Shown: positions 8,773-17,425, numbered from the stretch's first letter. The stretch is 44,678 bases of DNA from an uncultured bacterium (GCA_964474705.1 CAYYUI010000040.1:1-44678), one strand, 5' to 3'. Numbers and translations: made by a program. Notes: generated by a model from the sequence alone, not told the origin.

Positions 8773-10395
8773 TCAGAACAGAAAATCAGTGGTTAGAAAG
8801 CTTGAGAGGTCGTCTTTAAGAATTCTGGTGATCAACTGTTTGTTGTCATCGCTGTCTTTGGCGGCGACCAGGGTTCTTATCGAGAAAACCCGCAGAGCAT
8901 CAGAGACTGAAAGGGTGCCTTCTGCTGAATCCTTGCGGCCGGTGAACGGGAAGGTGTCGGGGCCGCGCTGGCACTGGCTGTTGATGTTAACACGACAGAC
9001 CTGATTAACCAGCGGGTCGATCAGTGAGGCCATCTGTTTCGCATCTTTCCCGAAAAGGCTTACCTGCTGACCATAGTCTGACTCGACGACGTAATTTATT
9101 GCATCTTCAATCTTATCGTAAGCCACAACTGGCACAATCGGCCCGAACTGTTCTTCGCGATACAGCTTCATTTTATCGTTAACCGGGTAGACAACCGCGG
9201 GAAAGAAGAGAGAGCCCGAAAAAGCCCCGCCCGAAGGATTAAGGATTCTGGCACCGTTTGTTTGCGCGTCTTTGATGAGATCAGTTAGGCGCTCTGATTT
9301 GCCGGGTTCTGCAAGCGGAGTGATCTGAGCGCCTTTTTCCCAGGGAAGATTGACCTGAAGCTTTTCTACTTCGGCGCAAAACTTAGCCAGGAAAGTTTCG
9401 GCTATAGAAGAATGGACAAAGATAATTTTCAGCGCGGTGCAACGCTGGCCATTGAATGACAGGCTTCCGAGAATGCATTCTTTGACCGCCAGATCGATAT
9501 CGGCATCGGGAAGAATAATACATGGGTTTTTAGCGTCCAGACCGAGTACGCAGCGCAGGCGGTGCGGTTTAGGGTGTGACCTGCGGATGATGTCTGAAAC
9601 ACGGCTGGTGCCGATAAAAGCCAGAACATCAACTTTTCCGGAGGTCATCATCGGCGTGATCACGGTCTGTCCGTCCCCATATACCGTATTGATGACCCCT
9701 TTCGGAAATGAATCACGAAAAGCTTCAAGCAGCGGCTGAAAAAGCAGGACGCCAAGTTTAGGTGGCTTGAAAACGACGGTGTTGCCCATGATCAGAGCTG
9801 GAATCAGCGTCGTAAAAGTTTCGTTGAGCGGGTAATTGAACGGGCCCATGCAAAGAACGACGCCGAGCGGTGCCCGTCTGATCTGACCGATAATTTTCTG
9901 CTGAATGGTAAAACGCGATGAAGTGCGGTCGAGTTCCTTCAGGGCTTCGATTGTATCGCGGATATAATCGATGGTGCGGTCGAATTCCTTCTGGGCATCG
10001 GCGAGGTTTTTGCAGATTTCCCACATCAGCAGGTTAACGACGCGGTCACGGCAGGCAAGCATGCGCTCTACAAAACTCTGAACGTGGCTGATGCGTTCTC
10101 CAACCGGCATGGTAGGCCATTTTCCCCGGCCGTTGTCGTAAGCCGCCGATGCCGCATTCAAAGCTTCTATGGCAGCATGATCTGACATGCTTGGCACGCA
10201 GCCAAGTTTTACCTGTTCTGGAGAGTTGTCTTTCCTGATTCTGACCGGGGAACTGATTTCCTGCATCTGGCCCTGCCATTGCCGTATTTCTCCATCGATC
10301 AGGTAATCGCGCTGCTCGATCCATGGGGCTTTGAATTCAGCTGGAATATTGGTTTCCTGTGGCGCAAGGGCTGCAAGCATTTCGCCTGTTATCAT
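8773..10395 (-). CDS. NAD(P)-dependent aldehyde dehydrogenase, GapN-like (non-phosphorylating GAPDH family)
   Basis: ALDH motifs FTGS-like, catalytic Cys in QRCTAL, and a C-terminus similar to GapN (QRGPDTFPFTG); GGAGG RBS before the ATG at 10395. Confidence 0.85.
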   Translation of the reverse strand: MITGEMLAALAPQETNIPAEFKAPWIEQRDYLIDGEIRQWQGQMQEISSPVRIRKDNSPEQVKLGCVPSMSDHAAIEALNAASAAYDNGRGKWPTMPVGERISHVQSFVERMLACRDRVVNLLMWEICKNLADAQKEFDRTIDYIRDTIEALKELDRTSSRFTIQQKIIGQIRRAPLGVVLCMGPFNYPLNETFTTLIPALIMGNTVVFKPPKLGVLLFQPLLEAFRDSFPKGVINTVYGDGQTVITPMMTSGKVDVLAFIGTSRVSDIIRRSHPKPHRLRCVLGLDAKNPCIILPDADIDLAVKECILGSLSFNGQRCTALKIIFVHSSIAETFLAKFCAEVEKLQVNLPWEKGAQITPLAEPGKSERLTDLIKDAQTNGARILNPSGGAFSGSLFFPAVVYPVNDKMKLYREEQFGPIVPVVAYDKIEDAINYVVESDYGQQVSLFGKDAKQMASLIDPLVNQVCRVNINSQCQRGPDTFPFTGRKDSAEGTLSVSDALRVFSIRTLVAAKDSDDNKQLITRILKDDLSSFLTTDFLF

Positions 10396-10633
10396 CGGGT
10401 TCCTCCGTTTGGTCAGCAACAGCTGCAGAAATTTAAGGTGTCTGAATTTACTCAGTAATTTTACATGATCGGCATGCTGGTAGCATTATTTTTTATGCAG
10501 CTCAGGGGCAAGAGTCTGGCCTTTTCTGAATATTTAAGCGCCCAAAGAGAGTTTATTGTACTTGAGAATAAAACCGGCCCGTTCAGATTTCTGACCGTGC
10601 CGGACGTTGATTCTGGCGTTTGCGGTGAATGCT

Positions 10634-10739
10634 CAGGGCCCCCAGTAAGTAACGCTGTAATTGTTCAGGATTTCTTTGAGTTTTCCGCTGGCGCGCCATT
10701 CTTCGATGCTCTTATCGTAACGGCGGCAAATATTGATCA
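10634..10739 (-). CDS. possible 35-aa small protein (MINICRRYDKSIEEWRASGKL...)
   Basis: Strong GAGAGGAG RBS 5 nt before the ATG; no homology recognised; downstream of the ankyrin gene. Confidence 0.2.
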
Positions 10740-10853
10740 TCGTATACTCCTCTCTAATTTCTTTTTGAAAAGACTTCAGCGTGTCTGGTAAAGATTTCGA
10801 TTCGTTAAATCTGCTCAGAAATCAAGAGATTCGACTTTTGCTTCAGCTCTTAT

Positions 10854-11933
10854 TCAAGACTTAACCGATTTGCAGAGAGGGCATTTGTTAGCGTCCGGCA
10901 TGCAGGCGGGGCAGATGTGTTCATGGTGAATGCAGCGGGGAAATGTGTTAACCGCTGTAGTCAGGTCGAATGTTTTTCTGCAAAGCGGGCATTGAAAAGT
11001 CTTTTTGCTTTTGCCGATGTTTTCACGGCGGTGCGCCCAGCGCCAGATGGTGTGCAAACCAGCTTCTGCCTTGTCGCGATTAAGTCCTGAGGCGGTCATG
11101 CAGGGTTTGCAGATCTTGTGCTCCTGGTCTGATGATCTGCCGTAGATCCCGCCGGCACAGGAAGAGCAGGTTGGGCGGCCACACCAGGAGCAGTGCCAGT
11201 CTATATCGCCAAAATCACTCATTCCGAGCCGATACGATCCGGAAAAGAAGGTTTGCCCGCAGATATGGCACGGCCCTGGCATACGTTGCCCATCAGCTCC
11301 GTGTTTCAGCAGAAGGTCGGTCAGTGTCTGGTTGTTTTTCTGGTGCGCGGCAAGAAGCGGGGTATCACCGTCTTTGCCCATGGCATTAACATTGGCGCCG
11401 CCGTTGAGCAGAACTTCAGCCAACTCCAGATTGTTCCAGTGAACCACCAGCGTGAGTGGCGTGGTGAAGTTCTCATATGACTGATATTCTGTAGAAAGTT
11501 TATTCTGGATGAGAAAATTAACCAAAGCAGGATTCTTACCCCATATAGCTCTGCCGATGAGGTAACCCTCATGCTCCTCGAGGGTTTCTGTCAGTTTTGC
11601 TCCGTGTTTCATCAGGAGTTTCAGTCCCTCCAGATTTCCTTTTTCACAGCAGATGTTCACGGCAGTTCGCCCCTGTCTGGTTCTTGCATCAGGCTTCACG
11701 CCATTTTTGAGCAGCAGACGGATAAGATTGTTGTTCGCGCCCATCGCTGCGTAGATAAGCGCATTGCCACCATCTACCGTAACCCGGAAGATATCTGCAC
11801 CGTCGCGATACAGCTCCATCGCGGTTTCTTCTTTTCCCCGCTGCAGGGCTTCGAAAAATTCAGAAATGCCGGCAGCATCGACCGGCTCGGCTCCAAGCAG
11901 ACGCTTAATTCCAGATTTGATCAGTCGTATCAT
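10854..11933 (-). CDS. ankyrin-repeat protein with C-terminal Cys-rich zinc fingers including a C3HC4 RING finger
   Basis: At least five ANK repeats (GxTPLhhAA / LLKHGA motifs); C-terminus CPLC-x14-CIHH-x3-CPAC-x6-CPLC fits RING spacing; a preceding Cys/His B-box-like module. Confidence 0.8.
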   Translation of the reverse strand: MIRLIKSGIKRLLGAEPVDAAGISEFFEALQRGKEETAMELYRDGADIFRVTVDGGNALIYAAMGANNNLIRLLLKNGVKPDARTRQGRTAVNICCEKGNLEGLKLLMKHGAKLTETLEEHEGYLIGRAIWGKNPALVNFLIQNKLSTEYQSYENFTTPLTLVVHWNNLELAEVLLNGGANVNAMGKDGDTPLLAAHQKNNQTLTDLLLKHGADGQRMPGPCHICGQTFFSGSYRLGMSDFGDIDWHCSWCGRPTCSSCAGGIYGRSSDQEHKICKPCMTASGLNRDKAEAGLHTIWRWAHRRENIGKSKKTFQCPLCRKTFDLTTAVNTFPRCIHHEHICPACMPDANKCPLCKSVKS

Positions 11934-12132
11934 GGCCTGTTTTCCGGTTGGTCATATTAATCTCAACGCAAAAAGACTAGCACCGGGTCAGAAAAAAGAC
12001 AATATCGCGACAAGACCATGCTGCGGTGAAAATTTGCAGCGTCAACGACTTTAGATTATATTGGTGTTAGCTTTTTTAAAGATTGGTTTGTATTCAAGCC
12101 TGACTGGCAGGTCTTGCAACCGGAGGAAGTTC

Positions 12133-12366
12133 ATGAAAACAATAGATCTGAATCTTTCGGATTATACCCTGGCGCAAAAGCTGCAACTGTTGGAAACCCT
12201 GTGGGATGACATTGCCAGAGAGGGCAGTTTCGATTCGCCAGAATGGCACGGCGCTGTTTTAAAAGACCGTCAGAAGGCCTATGATGCAAACAAACTGACA
12301 TCCTCAGATTGGCAACAGGCCAAGAAGCGTATCAAAAAAATCTCGCATGCGAGTAGAAATCCTTAA
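12133..12366 (+). CDS. putative addiction-module antitoxin component (RelB/Phd-like family)
   Basis: MKTIDLNLSDYTLAQKLQLLETLWDDIA is typical of the TIGR02574-type small antitoxin; GGAGGAAG RBS. Confidence 0.55.
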   Translation: MKTIDLNLSDYTLAQKLQLLETLWDDIAREGSFDSPEWHGAVLKDRQKAYDANKLTSSDWQQAKKRIKKISHASRNP

Positions 12367-12499
12367 TACCGCAGAAAGCGACCTTGAGGAAGGCTTGAAA
12401 GCGTTGATACCAGTTTACGGATTAACAACAAGCTCATGGAAAGCGCGTAAGCGTGAATTTAAACGCCTCTTGAAAAAGCTCGCTTCTGCCTTCCCCTGA
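12347..12499 (+). pseudogene. truncated RelE/ParE-like toxin remnant (50 aa)
   Basis: Overlaps the antitoxin 3' end in the usual TA arrangement; only the N-terminal part (MRVEILNTAESDLEEGLKAL) resembles ParE/RelE; about half the normal length. Confidence 0.3.
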
Positions 12500-12513: not shown

Positions 12514-15375
12514 TCACGCAGTGAGTCGCTGGTATAAATCAAACAAGAAGGCGACGCGGTCGGCTTCGGTTTTGAATGTGGTTTTGCCGTAGGCGGCATC
12601 CACTGCTTTGTCGAGATTCTGATGTGCCTTTACCAGTTCAGGGGGCATTGATCTAGGATCGTAGAGGTCAGCAAGAGAACTGTCTGGGTATTTGGTGCGG
12701 GCATCTAATACTTGCTGGGCCGCCAATTCAACTGCTTTCTGTTGTTTTTTGTCTGGGTTTAAAGGCCACGGGAATGTATTGTAGGTCAGCTTGGCCGAAT
12801 ATTGATAGTCGCTTTTCAATCTACCAGAAGTTGTGCGCATCCATGCCATGTGCATTGTGCTGGTAATTATGCCAAAATCATAAAGACTTGCACCGGGAAT
12901 GGTTTGCAACTTGTCGCCTGCAATGTGGGTATGTGGCAGATAGCCGATTGGGATGTAATTTCGGTTTTCTGATGAAACCCTTGGCAATGCGAGATAGTAG
13001 CCTGATTGAGGTTGTCTGATTTCAGCAAACAATGCTGGTTTATTAGAATCTCTTTGCGTGGCTTCTTTAGTGCTCGCACTTCTCATGGCTTTGACAGCTT
13101 CAACACGCTTCATCACATGATGCATTTCTCTTAACTTGTTTGGCGAGCAACCTACGAGCCAAAGGCAAAATCGTGGAATGTTGTTGATGAATTCATCACC
13201 CATTGAAAAAGGTCTTACAAGCTCTTCAGCGGCGGGTTCAATTTTTAATAACTCATTTTTTTCGTCTTCTGATAGCAAAAGATTGCCGCCATCGGTAGGC
13301 TTGTTGCCGTTTACCATTGCTGGAACTTTGCATAATGCCTGCGACCGTGCCAGAACAACAGCGTTGGGTGCATCGAGCAGGTATGGGTTAATGTTCTTTG
13401 CGATTGTGCTGTGTGGTTCGCCTTTAATGTCGTCATAGACAAATAGGGTCTTTTCTGGGGTTTCGGCCAGACCGAAGCCGATAATAACAACATGCACGGC
13501 CGCCTTTCCGCGTGCTTCGCTGCTCCAGCTGAATGTTCGGTGGGCAAAATAAATTTTCAGTCCTGCTTTTATAAGTGGCGGCCATAATATAGAGACCTGT
13601 TCACCCTGGGTGATGCTGTTTGTCGAGACGAATGCGACGCGTGTGTTTTTGTTTTTTACCAGGTAATCTGTGGCCAGATAATACCAGGCAGCGACAAAAT
13701 CAAGGCTTCTGTATAACTTCACTGGTTCGAGGCTGGCAGCAGCGTTGAATACCTTGTGTAAGTCGGTGTCCTGCTGGTCGGAACGGTAATTTTTGCCGAT
13801 GAACGGCGGATTTCCCATGATGTAGTCAAAACTTACCCGTTCTGATTCGGCTGGGGCCTGGCCTTTGTGCACTTTAAACGACTTTGTTTGAACATTGATA
13901 GTATTGTAAGTTTGCTTTGGATCATTTACCAGATAGATATTTGTATGTTGAGCTGTTGCATCAATGGTGCTGATGGGAATGAGAAGTTCTTGCCAGTCGA
14001 TCTGCAGGGCGTTGGCGCATACGATGGTGCCGCCGCCGCGCAATGGAATACGTGCAAAATAAAGGCCGAACTCTTCAGAAACCTGCATGTTCATCTGGTG
14101 GTCAACCAGCCACAGTGCAACCTGGGCAATCTGAGCCGGGAATTCTTCAATTTCGATGCCGTAGAACTGGTCAACATCAAGCTTTATCAGTGTCTGCACG
14201 TCCAGAATCTGTTGCTGTTTGTCATACATGGCGCGAAGAATTTCTAGTTCCAGCAGGCGCAATTCACGGTAGGCAATGACCAGAAAGTTGCCACAACCGC
14301 AAGCCGGGTCGAGAAATTTCAACGAGCGCAGCTTTTGATGAAACTCAGCCAGCTTGTTTTTATTACCCTTAAATTTGGTGAATTCTTCCCAGAGAACATC
14401 GAGAAACAGCGGCTTGATCAGCTTCAAAATGTTCCTTTCACTGGTATAGTGGGCACCAAGATTTCGTCTGGCGGTTTTATCCATGATTGACTGAAACAAC
14501 GAACCGAAGATAGCCGGTGAAATACGGCTCCAGTCGAGAGCGCAACAGTCGAGCAGAGTCTGGCGCATTTTGCTGTCAAAACTGGCGTTCGGCAGGATTT
14601 CCTCAAACAGCTTACCATTAACGTATGGAAAGGCGGCCAGCTGTTCATCGAGATTTCTGAGACGCCTGCTTTCTGGCGTGTTCAAAACCTGAAAAAGTGC
14701 GGCAATATGGTAAGCCAGATCTGAGCCGTCTTCATTCGTGCGTTCTTCAACATAGTTCTGAAAGGTCTGGCGCTCAAAAATGCCGGTGTCTTCGGCAAAT
14801 AGACAGAAAAGAAGGCGCACCAGATACAGCTCAAGCTGATGACCGTCGTAGCCGATTTCCTTGAGCTGGTCATGCAATCTCCCCATGTTTTCGGCGGCCC
14901 TGATATTAACCGGGTCTTCTTCGCGGATCTTGTGTTTCTGGTATCCGGCCACAAAGCCGAAAAGCCTGATGTTTTTGTGCAGGTCTCTGAGGTCGAAGTC
15001 GTGCTGCTCGTTTTCTTCCAGGTCATAGAGGCGGAACCTGGCAAAGTCAGAAACCAGAATGTATTTGGGCAGCTCGCGCTCCAGTATGCCGGGGAAATAA
15101 TCGAGAGCTTGAGTGTAGGCTCGATCAAGGTTTTTGCCGCGCGATTTGTGCTCGACCAGCAGAATTCCTTTCCAGAACAGGTCAATGAACCCTTGCTTTT
15201 CTCCGAGTTTCTTTACTGGTTCTTCAAATGACGCAACCCGCTTGCGGGTAATACCAAAGATATTGAAGAAGCCATCCCAGAATGATTTGGCTTCGGCATC
15301 TTCTGATGTTTCGGTTTCCCACTCTTTTGAAAAGGCTATGGCGCGGCTTTTTATCTCGTTCCAGCTCAAAGGCAT
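12514..15375 (-). CDS. MmeI-family Type IIL restriction-modification enzyme (fused endonuclease, N6-adenine methyltransferase and target-recognition domain)
   Basis: N-terminus MPLSWNEIKSRAIAFSKEWE; DLFW..EHKSRG nuclease motif; SAM motif I FLDPACGCGNFL; motif IV GNPPF; C-terminus LKAHQNLDKAVD..AFLFDLYQRLT, all characteristic of MmeI-like enzymes. Confidence 0.85.
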   Translation of the reverse strand: MPLSWNEIKSRAIAFSKEWETETSEDAEAKSFWDGFFNIFGITRKRVASFEEPVKKLGEKQGFIDLFWKGILLVEHKSRGKNLDRAYTQALDYFPGILERELPKYILVSDFARFRLYDLEENEQHDFDLRDLHKNIRLFGFVAGYQKHKIREEDPVNIRAAENMGRLHDQLKEIGYDGHQLELYLVRLLFCLFAEDTGIFERQTFQNYVEERTNEDGSDLAYHIAALFQVLNTPESRRLRNLDEQLAAFPYVNGKLFEEILPNASFDSKMRQTLLDCCALDWSRISPAIFGSLFQSIMDKTARRNLGAHYTSERNILKLIKPLFLDVLWEEFTKFKGNKNKLAEFHQKLRSLKFLDPACGCGNFLVIAYRELRLLELEILRAMYDKQQQILDVQTLIKLDVDQFYGIEIEEFPAQIAQVALWLVDHQMNMQVSEEFGLYFARIPLRGGGTIVCANALQIDWQELLIPISTIDATAQHTNIYLVNDPKQTYNTINVQTKSFKVHKGQAPAESERVSFDYIMGNPPFIGKNYRSDQQDTDLHKVFNAAASLEPVKLYRSLDFVAAWYYLATDYLVKNKNTRVAFVSTNSITQGEQVSILWPPLIKAGLKIYFAHRTFSWSSEARGKAAVHVVIIGFGLAETPEKTLFVYDDIKGEPHSTIAKNINPYLLDAPNAVVLARSQALCKVPAMVNGNKPTDGGNLLLSEDEKNELLKIEPAAEELVRPFSMGDEFINNIPRFCLWLVGCSPNKLREMHHVMKRVEAVKAMRSASTKEATQRDSNKPALFAEIRQPQSGYYLALPRVSSENRNYIPIGYLPHTHIAGDKLQTIPGASLYDFGIITSTMHMAWMRTTSGRLKSDYQYSAKLTYNTFPWPLNPDKKQQKAVELAAQQVLDARTKYPDSSLADLYDPRSMPPELVKAHQNLDKAVDAAYGKTTFKTEADRVAFLFDLYQRLTA

Positions 15376-15745
15376 GATTGTTACTCTCTGTTCAGGTTGA
15401 TTTTTGTTATGACTCAGGCTTTCGTCCGGCAAAGTCCATTAAATCACAATCAGATCTATCATGCAATTTTTGCTCAGATCGAACAACTCTACGAGTGAAG
15501 CATGGTCGATTCGCCTGATTTGGAAGCTTATAGTGGCCGCCTGGTAAAGGTTAAAAAGCGGCAGCAAAGTCTTCCTGATATAAATTCTGCGAACCATTGT
15601 TTGCTCAAATTAGGAACGCATTGCATACCATTTTGAAGACGGCTTGCTGTTTTAATTCACTGAATCTCGGCCTTTCCAGTTTGCTTCTTTCAAAGATTGT
15701 CGTCGGGTGGTTGAATTGTAATATTGCAGGTGATATCATAAATAT

Positions 15746-15991
15746 ATGGGAACATTTGAAAAACTCCTGGAAAAAATGCGCAGTAATCCTCGTGGAGATT
15801 GGACTATGGAAAATCTTCTGACGATTGCCAGGCGGATGAACATTGAGGTTCGCAACAGTGACGGCAGTCACCATGTTTTTTCTTTTCCAGGGCTGGATGA
15901 GGATGTAACGGTACCGTATAAGCGGCCGATCAAACCGGTTTATATCAAAAAGTTTCTTGCGCTGGTTGATGCGGTTAAGGAGGTTGTATGA
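15746..15991 (+). CDS. hicA: HicA-family mRNA interferase toxin
   Basis: GSHHVF ... VTVPYKRPIKPVYIKKFL motif of HicA/YcfA; ATGA overlap with the downstream gene. Confidence 0.7.
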   Translation: MGTFEKLLEKMRSNPRGDWTMENLLTIARRMNIEVRNSDGSHHVFSFPGLDEDVTVPYKRPIKPVYIKKFLALVDAVKEVV

Positions 15992-16380
15992 AGAAGGTTG
16001 CAAAAGTTAAGCCGCCCTTTGCTTTTGATGAATACACAAGGGTTCTGAGCCGTATTGCGGAAGATGACGGCGGCGGGTTTCTGATTACTTTTCCGGATCT
16101 GCCGGGCTGCATGTCTGATGGAACCACTGAGGAAGAGGCCCTCGAGAATGGAAGAGATGCTTTTGTTTCGTGGGTTTCAGCGCGGATGGATCAGGGAAAG
16201 AATATTCCGGAACCAAAAGCGAAGCCGATGGACTATGTTGCGGCAGATGTTTCCGGACGATTTCTGGCGCGGATGCCGAAGTATATTCATGCTCGTCTGG
16301 TTAAGAGGGCAGAACGTGAGGGTGTGAGCGTGAATGCCCTGGTTCTGTCTTTTATCGCTTCCGGGCTTGGGCAGAGCTGA
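15988..16380 (+). CDS. hicB: HicB-family antitoxin (RNase-H-like fold N-domain plus RHH DNA-binding C-domain)
   Basis: LITFPDLPGCMSDGTTEEEALENGRDA is HicB/UPF0150-like; the C-terminus is a ribbon-helix-helix. Confidence 0.75.
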   Translation: MKKVAKVKPPFAFDEYTRVLSRIAEDDGGGFLITFPDLPGCMSDGTTEEEALENGRDAFVSWVSARMDQGKNIPEPKAKPMDYVAADVSGRFLARMPKYIHARLVKRAEREGVSVNALVLSFIASGLGQS

Positions 16381-16434
16381 AACTCTCATTAACCAATAAT
16401 TTCCGGCACGCTACGTAGCGCGGCGCAAAAGATT

Positions 16435-16719
16435 TCAGGCAACCTTGCTTAGAGTCAGGTTGAATCCTGATCTCATGGCCAGAATAATAAGCATTTCCAG
16501 ACTGAATTTTTCCCATTTTCCACGAACCAGATCAGAAATTCTCGACTGGCTAACCTGCAGAATTTCGGCAGCTTCAGCCTGAGTAAGACCCTGATCACTG
16601 ATCCACTTTCTTACCTCTGCCATCAAATCAGCCCGCATTCTAAGAATTGCAGCATCTTCACTCGAATAGCCGAGGTCGAGAAAAACATTTCCAGATGATT
16701 CATGAATTTCGTTTTTCAT
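16435..16719 (-). CDS. higA: HigA-like XRE-family HTH antitoxin
   Basis: HTH LTQAEAAEILQVSQSRISDLVRG; its ATG overlaps the TAA stop of the upstream toxin reading frame by 1 nt. Confidence 0.75.
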   Translation of the reverse strand: MKNEIHESSGNVFLDLGYSSEDAAILRMRADLMAEVRKWISDQGLTQAEAAEILQVSQSRISDLVRGKWEKFSLEMLIILAMRSGFNLTLSKVA

Positions 16720-17041
16720 TATTTTACCCCAATGAGAGCCAGTCTTTTGCGAGCAATTTCGATATCCTGCAGAGAGGTTTTCTGTGTTTTTTTCTGAAAA
16801 GCGTGCAAAACATAAACAGCATCCAAAACTTTGGCTACGTAGATAACCCGCCATTCCCCAAGGATATGAATCCGGATTTCATTTACTCCAGAACCGATTG
16901 TCTTCAGGGTTTCCAGTCGCCTGGCTCAAACCCATTTTGAATAGCTCGAAGCTCGAAACCGGCAGCACGCCGCGCTTCCTCCGGGAAATCGCGCAATTCA
17001 TTCAGACTCGGCCCAACAAATCTTAATGGCTTGGTAGTCAC
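16719..17041 (-). pseudogene. higB: HigB/Gp49-like (RelE/ParE superfamily, COG4679-type) toxin, disrupted by a frameshift
   Basis: Two adjacent frames give KPLRFVGPSLNELRDFPEEARRAAGFELRAIQNGFEPGDWKP and LKTIGSGVNEIRIHILGEWRVIYVA..VYVLHAFQKKTQKT, which join if one C is added to the CCC run (plus-strand GGG at 16907-16909); putative GTG start at 17041. Confidence 0.6.
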
Positions 17042-17227: not shown

Positions 17228-17425
17228 TCAGTAATGCGGCGGTTTTTCGTCGTGGGGGCGGTCTTCGTCGATTGGGGAAGGGGTGGTTTTGGGCTGCAGG
17301 CGGGTGATTTCTTTGTAGCAGCGGTCGAGCTGTTTCTGCTGGTCGACGATGACTTCGTTGAGTTCTTCGACGAATTTTTCGAGGTAGACGAGGCGTTTTT
17401 CGATTTCGATGAAACGGTTTTCCAT
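17228..17425 (-). CDS. slyX: SlyX family protein
   Basis: Coiled-coil 65-aa protein ending in PPHY, as in SlyX. Confidence 0.8.
   Translation of the reverse strand: MENRFIEIEKRLVYLEKFVEELNEVIVDQQKQLDRCYKEITRLQPKTTPSPIDEDRPHDEKPPHY

Follow-up and report, generated by a model that had tools for sequence, protein, structure and literature searches.

The DNA analyzed here, termed the window, is the whole of a 44,678-nt stretch from an uncultured bacterium (GCA_964474705.1, CAYYUI010000040.1:1-44678). One of its genes encodes a protein of 359 amino acids (aa) that joins an ankyrin-repeat (ANK) solenoid to two cysteine-rich, putatively zinc-binding modules, the second of which resembles the RING fingers of ubiquitin ligases (E3 enzymes); we refer to it as the ANK-zinc gene and number residues according to its product (Table 1). 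We conclude with high confidence that this product is chromosomally encoded, vertically inherited, specific to the Riflebacteria and cytoplasmic, and that it consists of an ANK solenoid followed by a compact four-zinc unit. As its most likely mechanism, we propose that of an adaptor which would bridge two proteins, one bound by the solenoid and the other docked onto the zinc unit.

The solenoid is built of tandem 33-residue helix-turn-helix repeats that are recognized by profile hidden Markov models (HMMs) for ankyrin repeats (PF12796/PF00023). The full protein is strongly matched by the Pfam families Ank_2 (E = 1.7e-24; 86.6 bits, cutoff 27.3), Ank (E = 2.3e-19; 68.8 bits, cutoff 21.1) and Ank_4 (E = 5.4e-20; five stretches matched), and an AlphaFold2 (AF2) model based on the ortholog alignment displays six helix pairs across residues 25-210 at a predicted local distance difference test score (pLDDT) of 80-96, i.e., a cap and five 33-aa repeats. 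This bears out a preliminary description of the sequence, which had counted at least five ANK repeats and had proposed an HMM scan for them; the Cys/His motifs that it listed (CHICGQ, HCSWCG, CSSC and CKPCM) are likewise all present in the protein. The C-terminal 145 residues contain 15 Cys and 8 His, compared to 2 Cys in the ANK part. Sixteen putative zinc ligands form two eight-ligand modules, and none of them varies among 11 orthologs, the most divergent of which share 50% identity with the window protein. In a full-length AF2 run with these orthologs, the C-terminus was modeled at a pLDDT of 30-60; a run on the C-terminus alone, which also included five distant relatives, was used instead, and in this model the unit folds confidently as one body (pLDDT 88; predicted template modeling score 0.80). 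Between the modules, the linker is modeled with helices at residues 286-291 and 293-299 and carries, directly ahead of module 2, a motif that is invariant among the orthologs (W299-x-H301-x2-E304-N305-I306-G307-K308). The secretion-signal check suggested in the preliminary description was negative, with neither a signal peptide nor a hydrophobic N-terminal segment found in the protein.

Module 1, which the preliminary description had passed over as a "Cys/His-rich module" preceding the RING-like finger, is a FYVE-like double-zinc finger. Its eight Cys are spaced as in FYVE domains (C-x2-C-x22-C-x2-C-x4-C-x2-C-x15-C-x2-C) and are accompanied by two hairpins and a C-terminal helix. The Pfam FYVE family (PF01363) matches the window protein at 15.7-16.3 bits, below its gathering score of 27.8, and gives sub-threshold matches in 10 of the 11 orthologs (best E = 8.6e-4). 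A module-1-only profile found no significant match among PDB sequences, the weak matches being FYVE-type fingers plus one RING-type E3 (RNF135, E = 9.5). The signature for binding phosphatidylinositol 3-phosphate (PI3P) was not found in module 1: WxxD is absent before the first Cys, DWHCSW replaces RRHHCR, and KIC replaces RVC. Since both WxxD and the basic pocket are missing, PI3P binding is not expected, and the module can be termed FYVE-like or FYVE-related only; its identity as a FYVE-like finger without a phosphoinositide pocket is held with high confidence. FYVE-related protein-binding fingers are the closest known kind. Compared to FYVE and FYVE-related fingers as found in EEA1, Hrs and RUFY1 or in proteins of the rabphilin-3A, RIM2 and Slp4 type, module 1 lacks WxxD and the R(R/K)HHCR pocket, has a long first loop (22 residues), and occurs in bacteria, which lack PI3P-marked endosomes.

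Module 2 has the ligand arrangement C315-x2-C318-x15-C334-x2-H337-x3-C341-x2-C344-x6-C351-x2-C354, which conforms to the canonical RING expression C-x2-C-x(9-39)-C-x(1-3)-H-x(2-3)-C-x2-C-x(4-48)-C-x2-C (PMC11354881). This ligand order is matched by module 2 in 11/11 orthologs and occurs a single time among the open reading frames (ORFs) in all six frames of the window; in shuffled sequences it arose in 0/100,000 cases for the module-2 segment and in 89/100,000 for the whole Cys-rich C-terminus. Given that the pattern is unique in the window, present in every ortholog and never regenerated by shuffling module 2, it is not due to chance. The preliminary description had held that the spacing fits RING exactly; the eight-ligand C3HC4 stretch does fit, but the first spacer has 15 residues and not 14.

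Sequence similarity leans in the same direction. The first and last knuckles of module 2 are both of the RING-typical form CP[LVI]C. When a module-2 profile was compared to all PDB sequences, the sole significant match was the RING of RNF126 (PDB 2ECT; E = 5.7e-6, 44/52 positions), in an alignment in which ligands 3-6 are out of register. All remaining RINGs scored E >= 0.1, with about 11 different RING proteins in the non-significant tail (weak matches including cIAP1/2, RCHY1, RNF4, XIAP, MDM4, BIRC7, ZNRF1 and TRIM32), and no FYVE, PHD or LIM finger was found among the PDB matches. The top eukaryotic match among 1.84 billion proteins was a Ptychodera flava protein (E = 3e-4) in which Pfam sees four zf-RING_5 domains. 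Module 2 thus shares C3HC4 ligand order and consensus spacing with the eukaryotic RING-HC fingers, among which RNF126 is closest in sequence, whereas the IAP-type RINGs (cIAP, XIAP), which have the six-residue loop between ligands C6 and C7 in common with it, are closest in loop lengths. The label "RING-like" is thereby supported.

The same cannot be said of the label "canonical, eukaryote-derived effector E3", which the data do not support. In contrast to RING-HC fingers, module 2 is missed by every Pfam RING model: the scan for zf-RING and zf-C3HC4 suggested in the preliminary description returned no RING family at E <= 1 for the full window protein, and curated RING HMMs applied to the 11 orthologs yielded only zf-C3HC4_3, in 2/11 and at E = 7.3, without reaching the gathering score. 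Fold searches with the predicted structure contained no RING among their matches, and no viral fold in BFVD was matched at an E-value under 0.1. RINGs carry a central helix, in the C6-C7 loop region, that binds ubiquitin-conjugating (E2) enzymes; in the AF2 model of module 2, by contrast, a helix lies between C2 and C3, and the C6-C7 loop is coil only, with no central helix. The C3-x2-H-x3-C5 spacing lies at the top end of the range allowed by the RING-HC consensus. Neither the hydrophobic residue at C1+2 (L/V/I in 8 orthologs, Glu in 3) nor the linchpin is conserved, the residue that follows C8 being K, E, S, I, M or T; the Pro after C7 is invariant. What the preliminary description had called a canonical C3HC4 RING finger therefore has a genuine RING-like pattern and an RNF126 match, but an atypical topology and negative outcomes with Pfam RING HMMs and fold searches.

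Relatives of the protein help to specify how module 2 might hold its zinc. Distant relatives have a Cys aligned with H337 (C-x2-C-x4-C-x2-C), which identifies H337 as ligand 4 and the wider family as C4C4. P0051, another Riflebacteria/Ozemobacteraceae ANK protein, keeps ligand pairs 1 and 3 only, having lost pairs 2 and 4. Such a loss would remove exactly one site from a cross-braced finger but wreck both sites of a sequential one, which indirectly supports a cross-brace. From this ligand-loss pattern in the sequences, module 2 is probably cross-braced (pairs 1+3 and 2+4); a zinc-ribbon or rubredoxin-like fit, raised in the preliminary description as a finding that would undo its interpretation, was not obtained. 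Unlike RING-HC fingers, members of the wider ANK-zinc family are thus C4C4 or four-Cys. E3 activity of module 2 is possible, as a candidate function. Derivation of module 2 from module 1 by internal duplication was also considered, and is unproven (hhalign probability 32%); distant relatives do carry C8 in both modules.

With 15 Cys in 145 aa, the C-terminus could instead belong to a zinc- or redox-sensing or nucleic-acid-binding regulator rather than to a protein-protein adaptor, the fingers releasing zinc on oxidation or binding DNA/RNA while the solenoid sequesters a regulator such as a sigma factor. Indeed, H337-x3-C341-x2-C344 of module 2 resembles the zinc-binding anti-sigma (ZAS) motif, but the ZAS fold is all-helical and the fingers are predicted as beta-hairpins. 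Weak C2H2-type matches to KTFxCPxCxKxF at the start of module 2 span only 12-20 residues, over a helix without His ligands, and a C2H2-finger reading of this segment was rejected on that account. The MzaA sigma-factor model is matched as well, through its ANK part. As all of these similarities are below significance and no sigma-factor or regulator gene is adjacent, we consider a regulator of this kind decidedly improbable.

A search of 5.8 billion proteins recovered 11 full-length orthologs (50-100% identity), all other matches being generic ANK proteins; every ortholog carrier with a name is a Candidatus Riflebacteria or Ozemobacteraceae metagenome-assembled genome (MAG). The family is tiny: when 1.84 billion cluster representatives were searched exhaustively with HMMER, using a C-terminal profile, only 10 matches reached E <= 1e-3. 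These comprise the ortholog cluster itself, two further Riflebacteria/Ozemobacteraceae ANK proteins (P0051 and P0052), three short bacterial proteins that lack ANK repeats and are made of two or three Cys8 modules (P0054, P0055 and P0058), and marginal eukaryotic matches. No close eukaryotic homolog was found among these representatives. In 185,579 GTDB species genomes there are seven loci, in Riflebacteria, Ozemobacteraceae, Rifleibacterium or unnamed MAGs, one of which carries two paralogs. Our literature search found no paper that joins Riflebacteria and ankyrin and no description of the ANK-zinc family.

Some additional observations concern these relatives. The ANK-less proteins P0054, P0055, P0058 and P0070 are 232-265 aa long, with Cys8 modules related to the zinc unit of the window protein; one Cys8 protein gene (locus L005, 8001-8705, plus strand) is situated in a conserved QueC/PTPS/poly(A)-polymerase neighborhood, an ordinary bacterial context, adjoined by a zinc-ribbon-like ORF (L005, 7228-7890, plus strand). 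In the Riflebacteria MAG JAHISQ01, both paralogs lie near ANK-only proteins of ~600 aa (L011, 2532-4346, minus strand; L013, 2804-4669, plus strand), each with a signal-peptide or lipobox-like N-terminus, which suggests that the ANK repertoire of the lineage is expanded and partly exported.

The ratio of nonsynonymous to synonymous substitution rates (dN/dS) in pairwise comparisons with the window gene is 0.07-0.27, with both the ANK and zinc halves at ~0.1 and with dS near or at saturation, and the GC content of the gene, overall and at third codon positions (GC3), is that of the adjacent genes. Near-saturated dS with low dN/dS among the Riflebacteria orthologs indicates old vertical inheritance under purifying selection, and in combination with native GC and GC3 it identifies a real and old gene rather than a recent import. 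The preliminary description had treated RING domains as essentially eukaryotic and the gene as a possible sign of horizontal transfer; the compositional and substitution data, together with the want of a close eukaryotic homolog, do not support that view.

The preliminary description had also placed the protein among host-targeted effectors. On this account, it would be secreted or translocated as an E3, its RING-like finger recruiting a eukaryotic E2~ubiquitin, its solenoid selecting a host or prey protein, and its FYVE-like finger aiding membrane or organelle targeting. The fit to the RING expression, the RNF126 match, the RING-typical knuckles and a top eukaryotic match that Pfam recognizes as RING (zf-RING_5) are what would be expected of such a protein, and ANK expansions along with a major vault protein (MVP) homolog lend the lineage a "eukaryote-like" flavor. 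Legionella encodes AnkB, which combines an F-box with ANK repeats, as well as U-box effectors. Like the window protein, such mimics are bacterial and join ANK repeats to an E3-type module, and a precedent with a RING exists in Cardinium hertigii, where CAHE_p0026 is annotated as ANK plus RING (PMC5698495). However, the Cardinium and Legionella mimics come from bacteria that live inside cells, obligately or facultatively, and have secretion systems dedicated to the purpose, and they are often encoded on plasmids or islands, whereas the ANK-zinc gene is chromosomal, belongs to a free-living phylum, specifies no secretion signal, and was not retrieved as a homolog of these mimics. Riflebacteria have been described as free-living anaerobic fermenters with a genome of ~5.4 Mb, for example from a 2.8-km-deep aquifer (PMC7509429), and some of the carriers come from deep-aquifer habitats. 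NCBIfam models of Legionella-type Dot/Icm ANK effectors (AnkH, AnkY, AnkX and others) scored at most 59 bits against cutoffs of 300-1400 (best AnkH, 59 bits versus a cutoff of 600), through generic ANK similarity only. When the missing PI3P motifs of module 1, the unconserved linchpin, the negative Pfam RING models, and the lack of any gene for a type III, IV or VI secretion system (T3SS, T4SS or T6SS) in the window are added, an effector E3 becomes very unlikely.

The surroundings of the gene offer no operon partner. The window is otherwise unremarkable bacterial DNA, with genes for ABC exporters, an S9 peptidase, an aldehyde dehydrogenase, CorA, an ABC-2 transporter, peptidoglycan hydrolases and components of two-component systems; no match was obtained when it was scanned for Rfam families and for tRNAs. 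Genes for ubiquitin-activating (E1) or E2 enzymes, ubiquitin-like proteins (Ubl), JAB-type proteins, deubiquitinases, or T3SS, T4SS or T6SS are absent from the 44.7-kb window, those for E1, E2, Ubl and JAB are absent beside the ANK-zinc genes at ~14 loci examined, and no functional partner gene is conserved across 12 loci; these negatives cover the window and 4-21-kb flanks in genomes of ~5 Mb.

Upstream of the ANK-zinc gene lies an island with an antitoxin, an MmeI-type restriction-modification (RM) enzyme, a HicB-like antitoxin and an XRE-type helix-turn-helix (HTH) gene (Table 1). A full ParE toxin gene occupies the position of the 50-aa ORF in the orthologous loci L002, L007 and L009, and the toxin partner in the window, which adjoins the MmeI gene, is probably truncated or decayed. 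Ahead of the HicB-like gene, at the position of HicA, an overlapping 81-aa ORF has no Pfam or NCBIfam match. In L002, another methylase/SNF2 helicase set takes the place of MmeI; across the orthologous loci, a ParE/antitoxin pair recurs in four close ones, and argF and AddAB-like genes lie downstream in six. Because the content of the island varies while the ANK-zinc gene stays, the gene flanks a variable hotspot and is not a member of the island. On the other side, the gap contains only one 108-aa ORF, without Pfam match, and has no Rfam match; given that argF is downstream in six orthologous loci instead, the gap marks a rearrangement point. The RM/toxin-antitoxin (TA) island and the aldehyde-dehydrogenase family gene named as neighbors in the preliminary description are thus both in place, while the epithet "GapN-like" for the latter was not specifically confirmed, as no NCBIfam equivalog scored above cutoff.

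Table 1. Coordinates of the ANK-zinc gene, its encoded domains and its neighbors in the window
Feature	Position	Strand	Remarks
ANK / FYVE-like / RING-like protein, complete coding sequence	10854..11933	minus	ATG to stop; 359 aa plus stop codon
Ankyrin-repeat solenoid, aa 25-214	11292..11861	minus	Pfam Ank HMMs and AF2; N-terminal cap plus five 33-residue repeats
Zn module 1, FYVE-like binuclear finger, aa 222-278	11100..11270	minus	
Helical linker, aa 279-314	10992..11099	minus	Invariant ortholog columns and AF2 helices
Zn module 2, divergent RING-like (C3HC4) finger, aa 315-354	10872..10991	minus	Invariant ligands, RING expression, RNF126 match
Aldehyde-dehydrogenase family gene	8773-10419		Generic; no NCBIfam equivalog above cutoff
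Gap	10420-10853		434 bp between aldehyde dehydrogenase gene and 3' end of ANK-zinc gene
Unstab_antitox antitoxin	12061-12366	plus	Followed by 50-aa ORF (12347-12499) without Pfam match
MmeI-type Type IIG RM enzyme	12514-15432	minus	Five of five MmeI Pfam domains; PADLOC REase_MTase_IIG, 1206 bits
HicB-like antitoxin	15988-16380		E = 2.2e-12; small TA-like genes at 15746-17041
HTH_37/XRE-type gene	16435-16854	minus	45-aa remnant ORF upstream

Further along, a SlyX-family small protein (17228-17425, minus strand; 5e-16) is encoded directly upstream of the gene for the magnesium transporter CorA (17439-18506), and an 831-aa ORF (18600-21095, plus strand) specifies the MVP homolog, a second "eukaryote-like" protein ~7 kb from the ANK-zinc gene. 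The latter is recognized by Pfam (MVP_shoulder, 1.5e-29; Vault_3, 4.8e-7) and is collinear with solved MVP chains (aa 471-761 versus 475-791, E ~5e-15); no NCBIfam or PADLOC family matches it. For the ANK-zinc protein itself, PADLOC and NCBIfam matches (PDC-M72A, Ankyrin, MzaA and the Legionella Ank effectors) were discarded as evidence of defense or effector function, being generic ANK only. The P0051 gene adjoins one for a TPR/Sel1 protein. At L015 (3055-7719, minus strand), the gene for the paralog P0062 is next to, and oriented divergently from, genes for ABC-F and for the proteolysis adaptor ClpS and unfoldase ClpA, and at L001 (11279-12892, minus strand) an ABC-F ATPase also flanks the ortholog P0009; this proximity to ABC-F and ClpS-ClpA may be coincidence.

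The absence of ubiquitin-system genes from these neighborhoods bears directly on whether the protein could act as an endogenous RING-type E3 or adaptor, i.e., as a prokaryotic counterpart of the ANK-RING and FYVE-RING ligases in which a bacterial E2-like~Ubl encoded elsewhere would bind to the RING-like finger and the solenoid would present a substrate. Known prokaryotic ubiquitin-like systems are typically operonic, and no E1, E2, Ubl or JAB gene stands beside any of the ~14 loci. In favor of such an enzyme, module 2 has a RING-like sequence and ligand pattern, the losses in P0051 favor a cross-brace, purifying selection acts strongly on what is a cytoplasmic protein, and one paralog adjoins ClpS-ClpA; Burroughs et al. 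(2011) are also said to have linked prokaryotic RING fingers to E1/E2/JAB/Ubl operons. Nevertheless, neither the E2-contact positions nor the linchpin are conserved, the central helix is absent from the AF2 model, and half of the finger's ligands are lost in paralogs, such that we judge an endogenous E3 to be unlikely.

Comparable domain layouts are known from eukaryotes, in which MIB1/2 and the plant XBAT/XB3 proteins combine ANK repeats with a C-terminal RING, yeast Pib1 and CARP1/2 (i.e., RNF34/RFFL) combine a FYVE-like finger with a RING, and ANKFY1 combines ANK repeats with FYVE. With these E3s and adaptors, the window protein shares the order of repeat domain, FYVE-like finger and C-terminal short-loop RING-like finger. 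What is shared is only the generic class of domain, however, as none of them is among the HMMER matches of the C-terminal profile in the 1.84 billion representatives, which points to convergence or very ancient divergence and not to recent transfer. In 2011, Burroughs, Iyer and Aravind reportedly described how RINGs and further binuclear fingers of the treble-clef type have radiated in prokaryotes (cited in PMC4506424 and PMC11354881); these radiations likewise comprise bacterial RING-like binuclear fingers, fused to peptide-binding repeats and not necessarily related to ubiquitin. Most of the prokaryotic RINGs described are C4HC3 fingers in which the last loop is long (PMC11354881), whereas module 2 is of the C3HC4 type and its last loop is very short. 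For a tandem FYVE-like and RING-like unit, fused to ANK repeats and restricted to Riflebacteria, we found no described family as a match.

We favor, at a probability of roughly 0.45, a zinc-stabilized adaptor that works within the bacterium itself. One protein would sit in the concave groove of the ANK solenoid, while a second partner would dock onto the rigid double-finger unit via the exposed CP[LVI]C knuckle loops of module 2 and the invariant W-x-H...ENIGK linker, the two being brought together by the ANK-zinc protein. The RING-like finger would here serve as a protein-docking treble-clef module that need not activate an E2. Since paralogs and distant relatives can have C4C4 ligands or dispense with one zinc site altogether, a structural or docking role fits better than that of a tuned catalytic activator, and the unconserved E2-contact and linchpin positions, in combination with a context devoid of ubiquitin-system genes, also suit a docking module better than an E2 activator. 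Several points weigh against this proposal. Adaptor binding is itself a prediction, as are the partners; by sequence, the class nearest to module 2 appears to be the RING E3s, and its zinc geometry is deduced from ligand patterns. ANK-then-RING and FYVE-then-RING are classic eukaryotic E3 layouts (MIB1/2, XBAT, Pib1, CARP/RFFL). Moreover, an E2 or Ubl gene could possibly lie beyond the window and the 4-21-kb flanks in these ~5-Mb genomes.

RING, FYVE and ANK modules are hallmark parts of eukaryotic signaling, and the present family, conserved and vertically inherited in a free-living candidate phylum, shows that C3HC4 patterns of the RING type, as well as domain layouts like those of E3s, can originate and be maintained in bacteria without a link to a host. 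As such, it counsels caution: an "ANK + RING pattern" is not to be read as a sign of an effector or of gene transfer. It is unlikely that module 2 is a functional RING native to a free-living phylum and the protein a genuine ANK-FYVE-like-RING E3, acting with a so-far-unnoticed Riflebacteria E2/Ubl system or on the ubiquitin of protist grazers; if true, the eukaryotic FYVE-RING and ANK-RING ligases would have a counterpart, or precursor-like relative, in a bacterial lineage with an MVP homolog of its own. Ultimately, the family provides a small and tractable four-zinc unit, represented by ~10 sequence clusters worldwide, that is well suited to asking whether prokaryotic RING-like fingers engage E2s. 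Should they prove inactive as E3s, the family would constitute one more lineage-specific zinc-finger adaptor, whereas a demonstration of E3 activity would be relevant to the question of which prokaryotic antecedents the ubiquitin system had.

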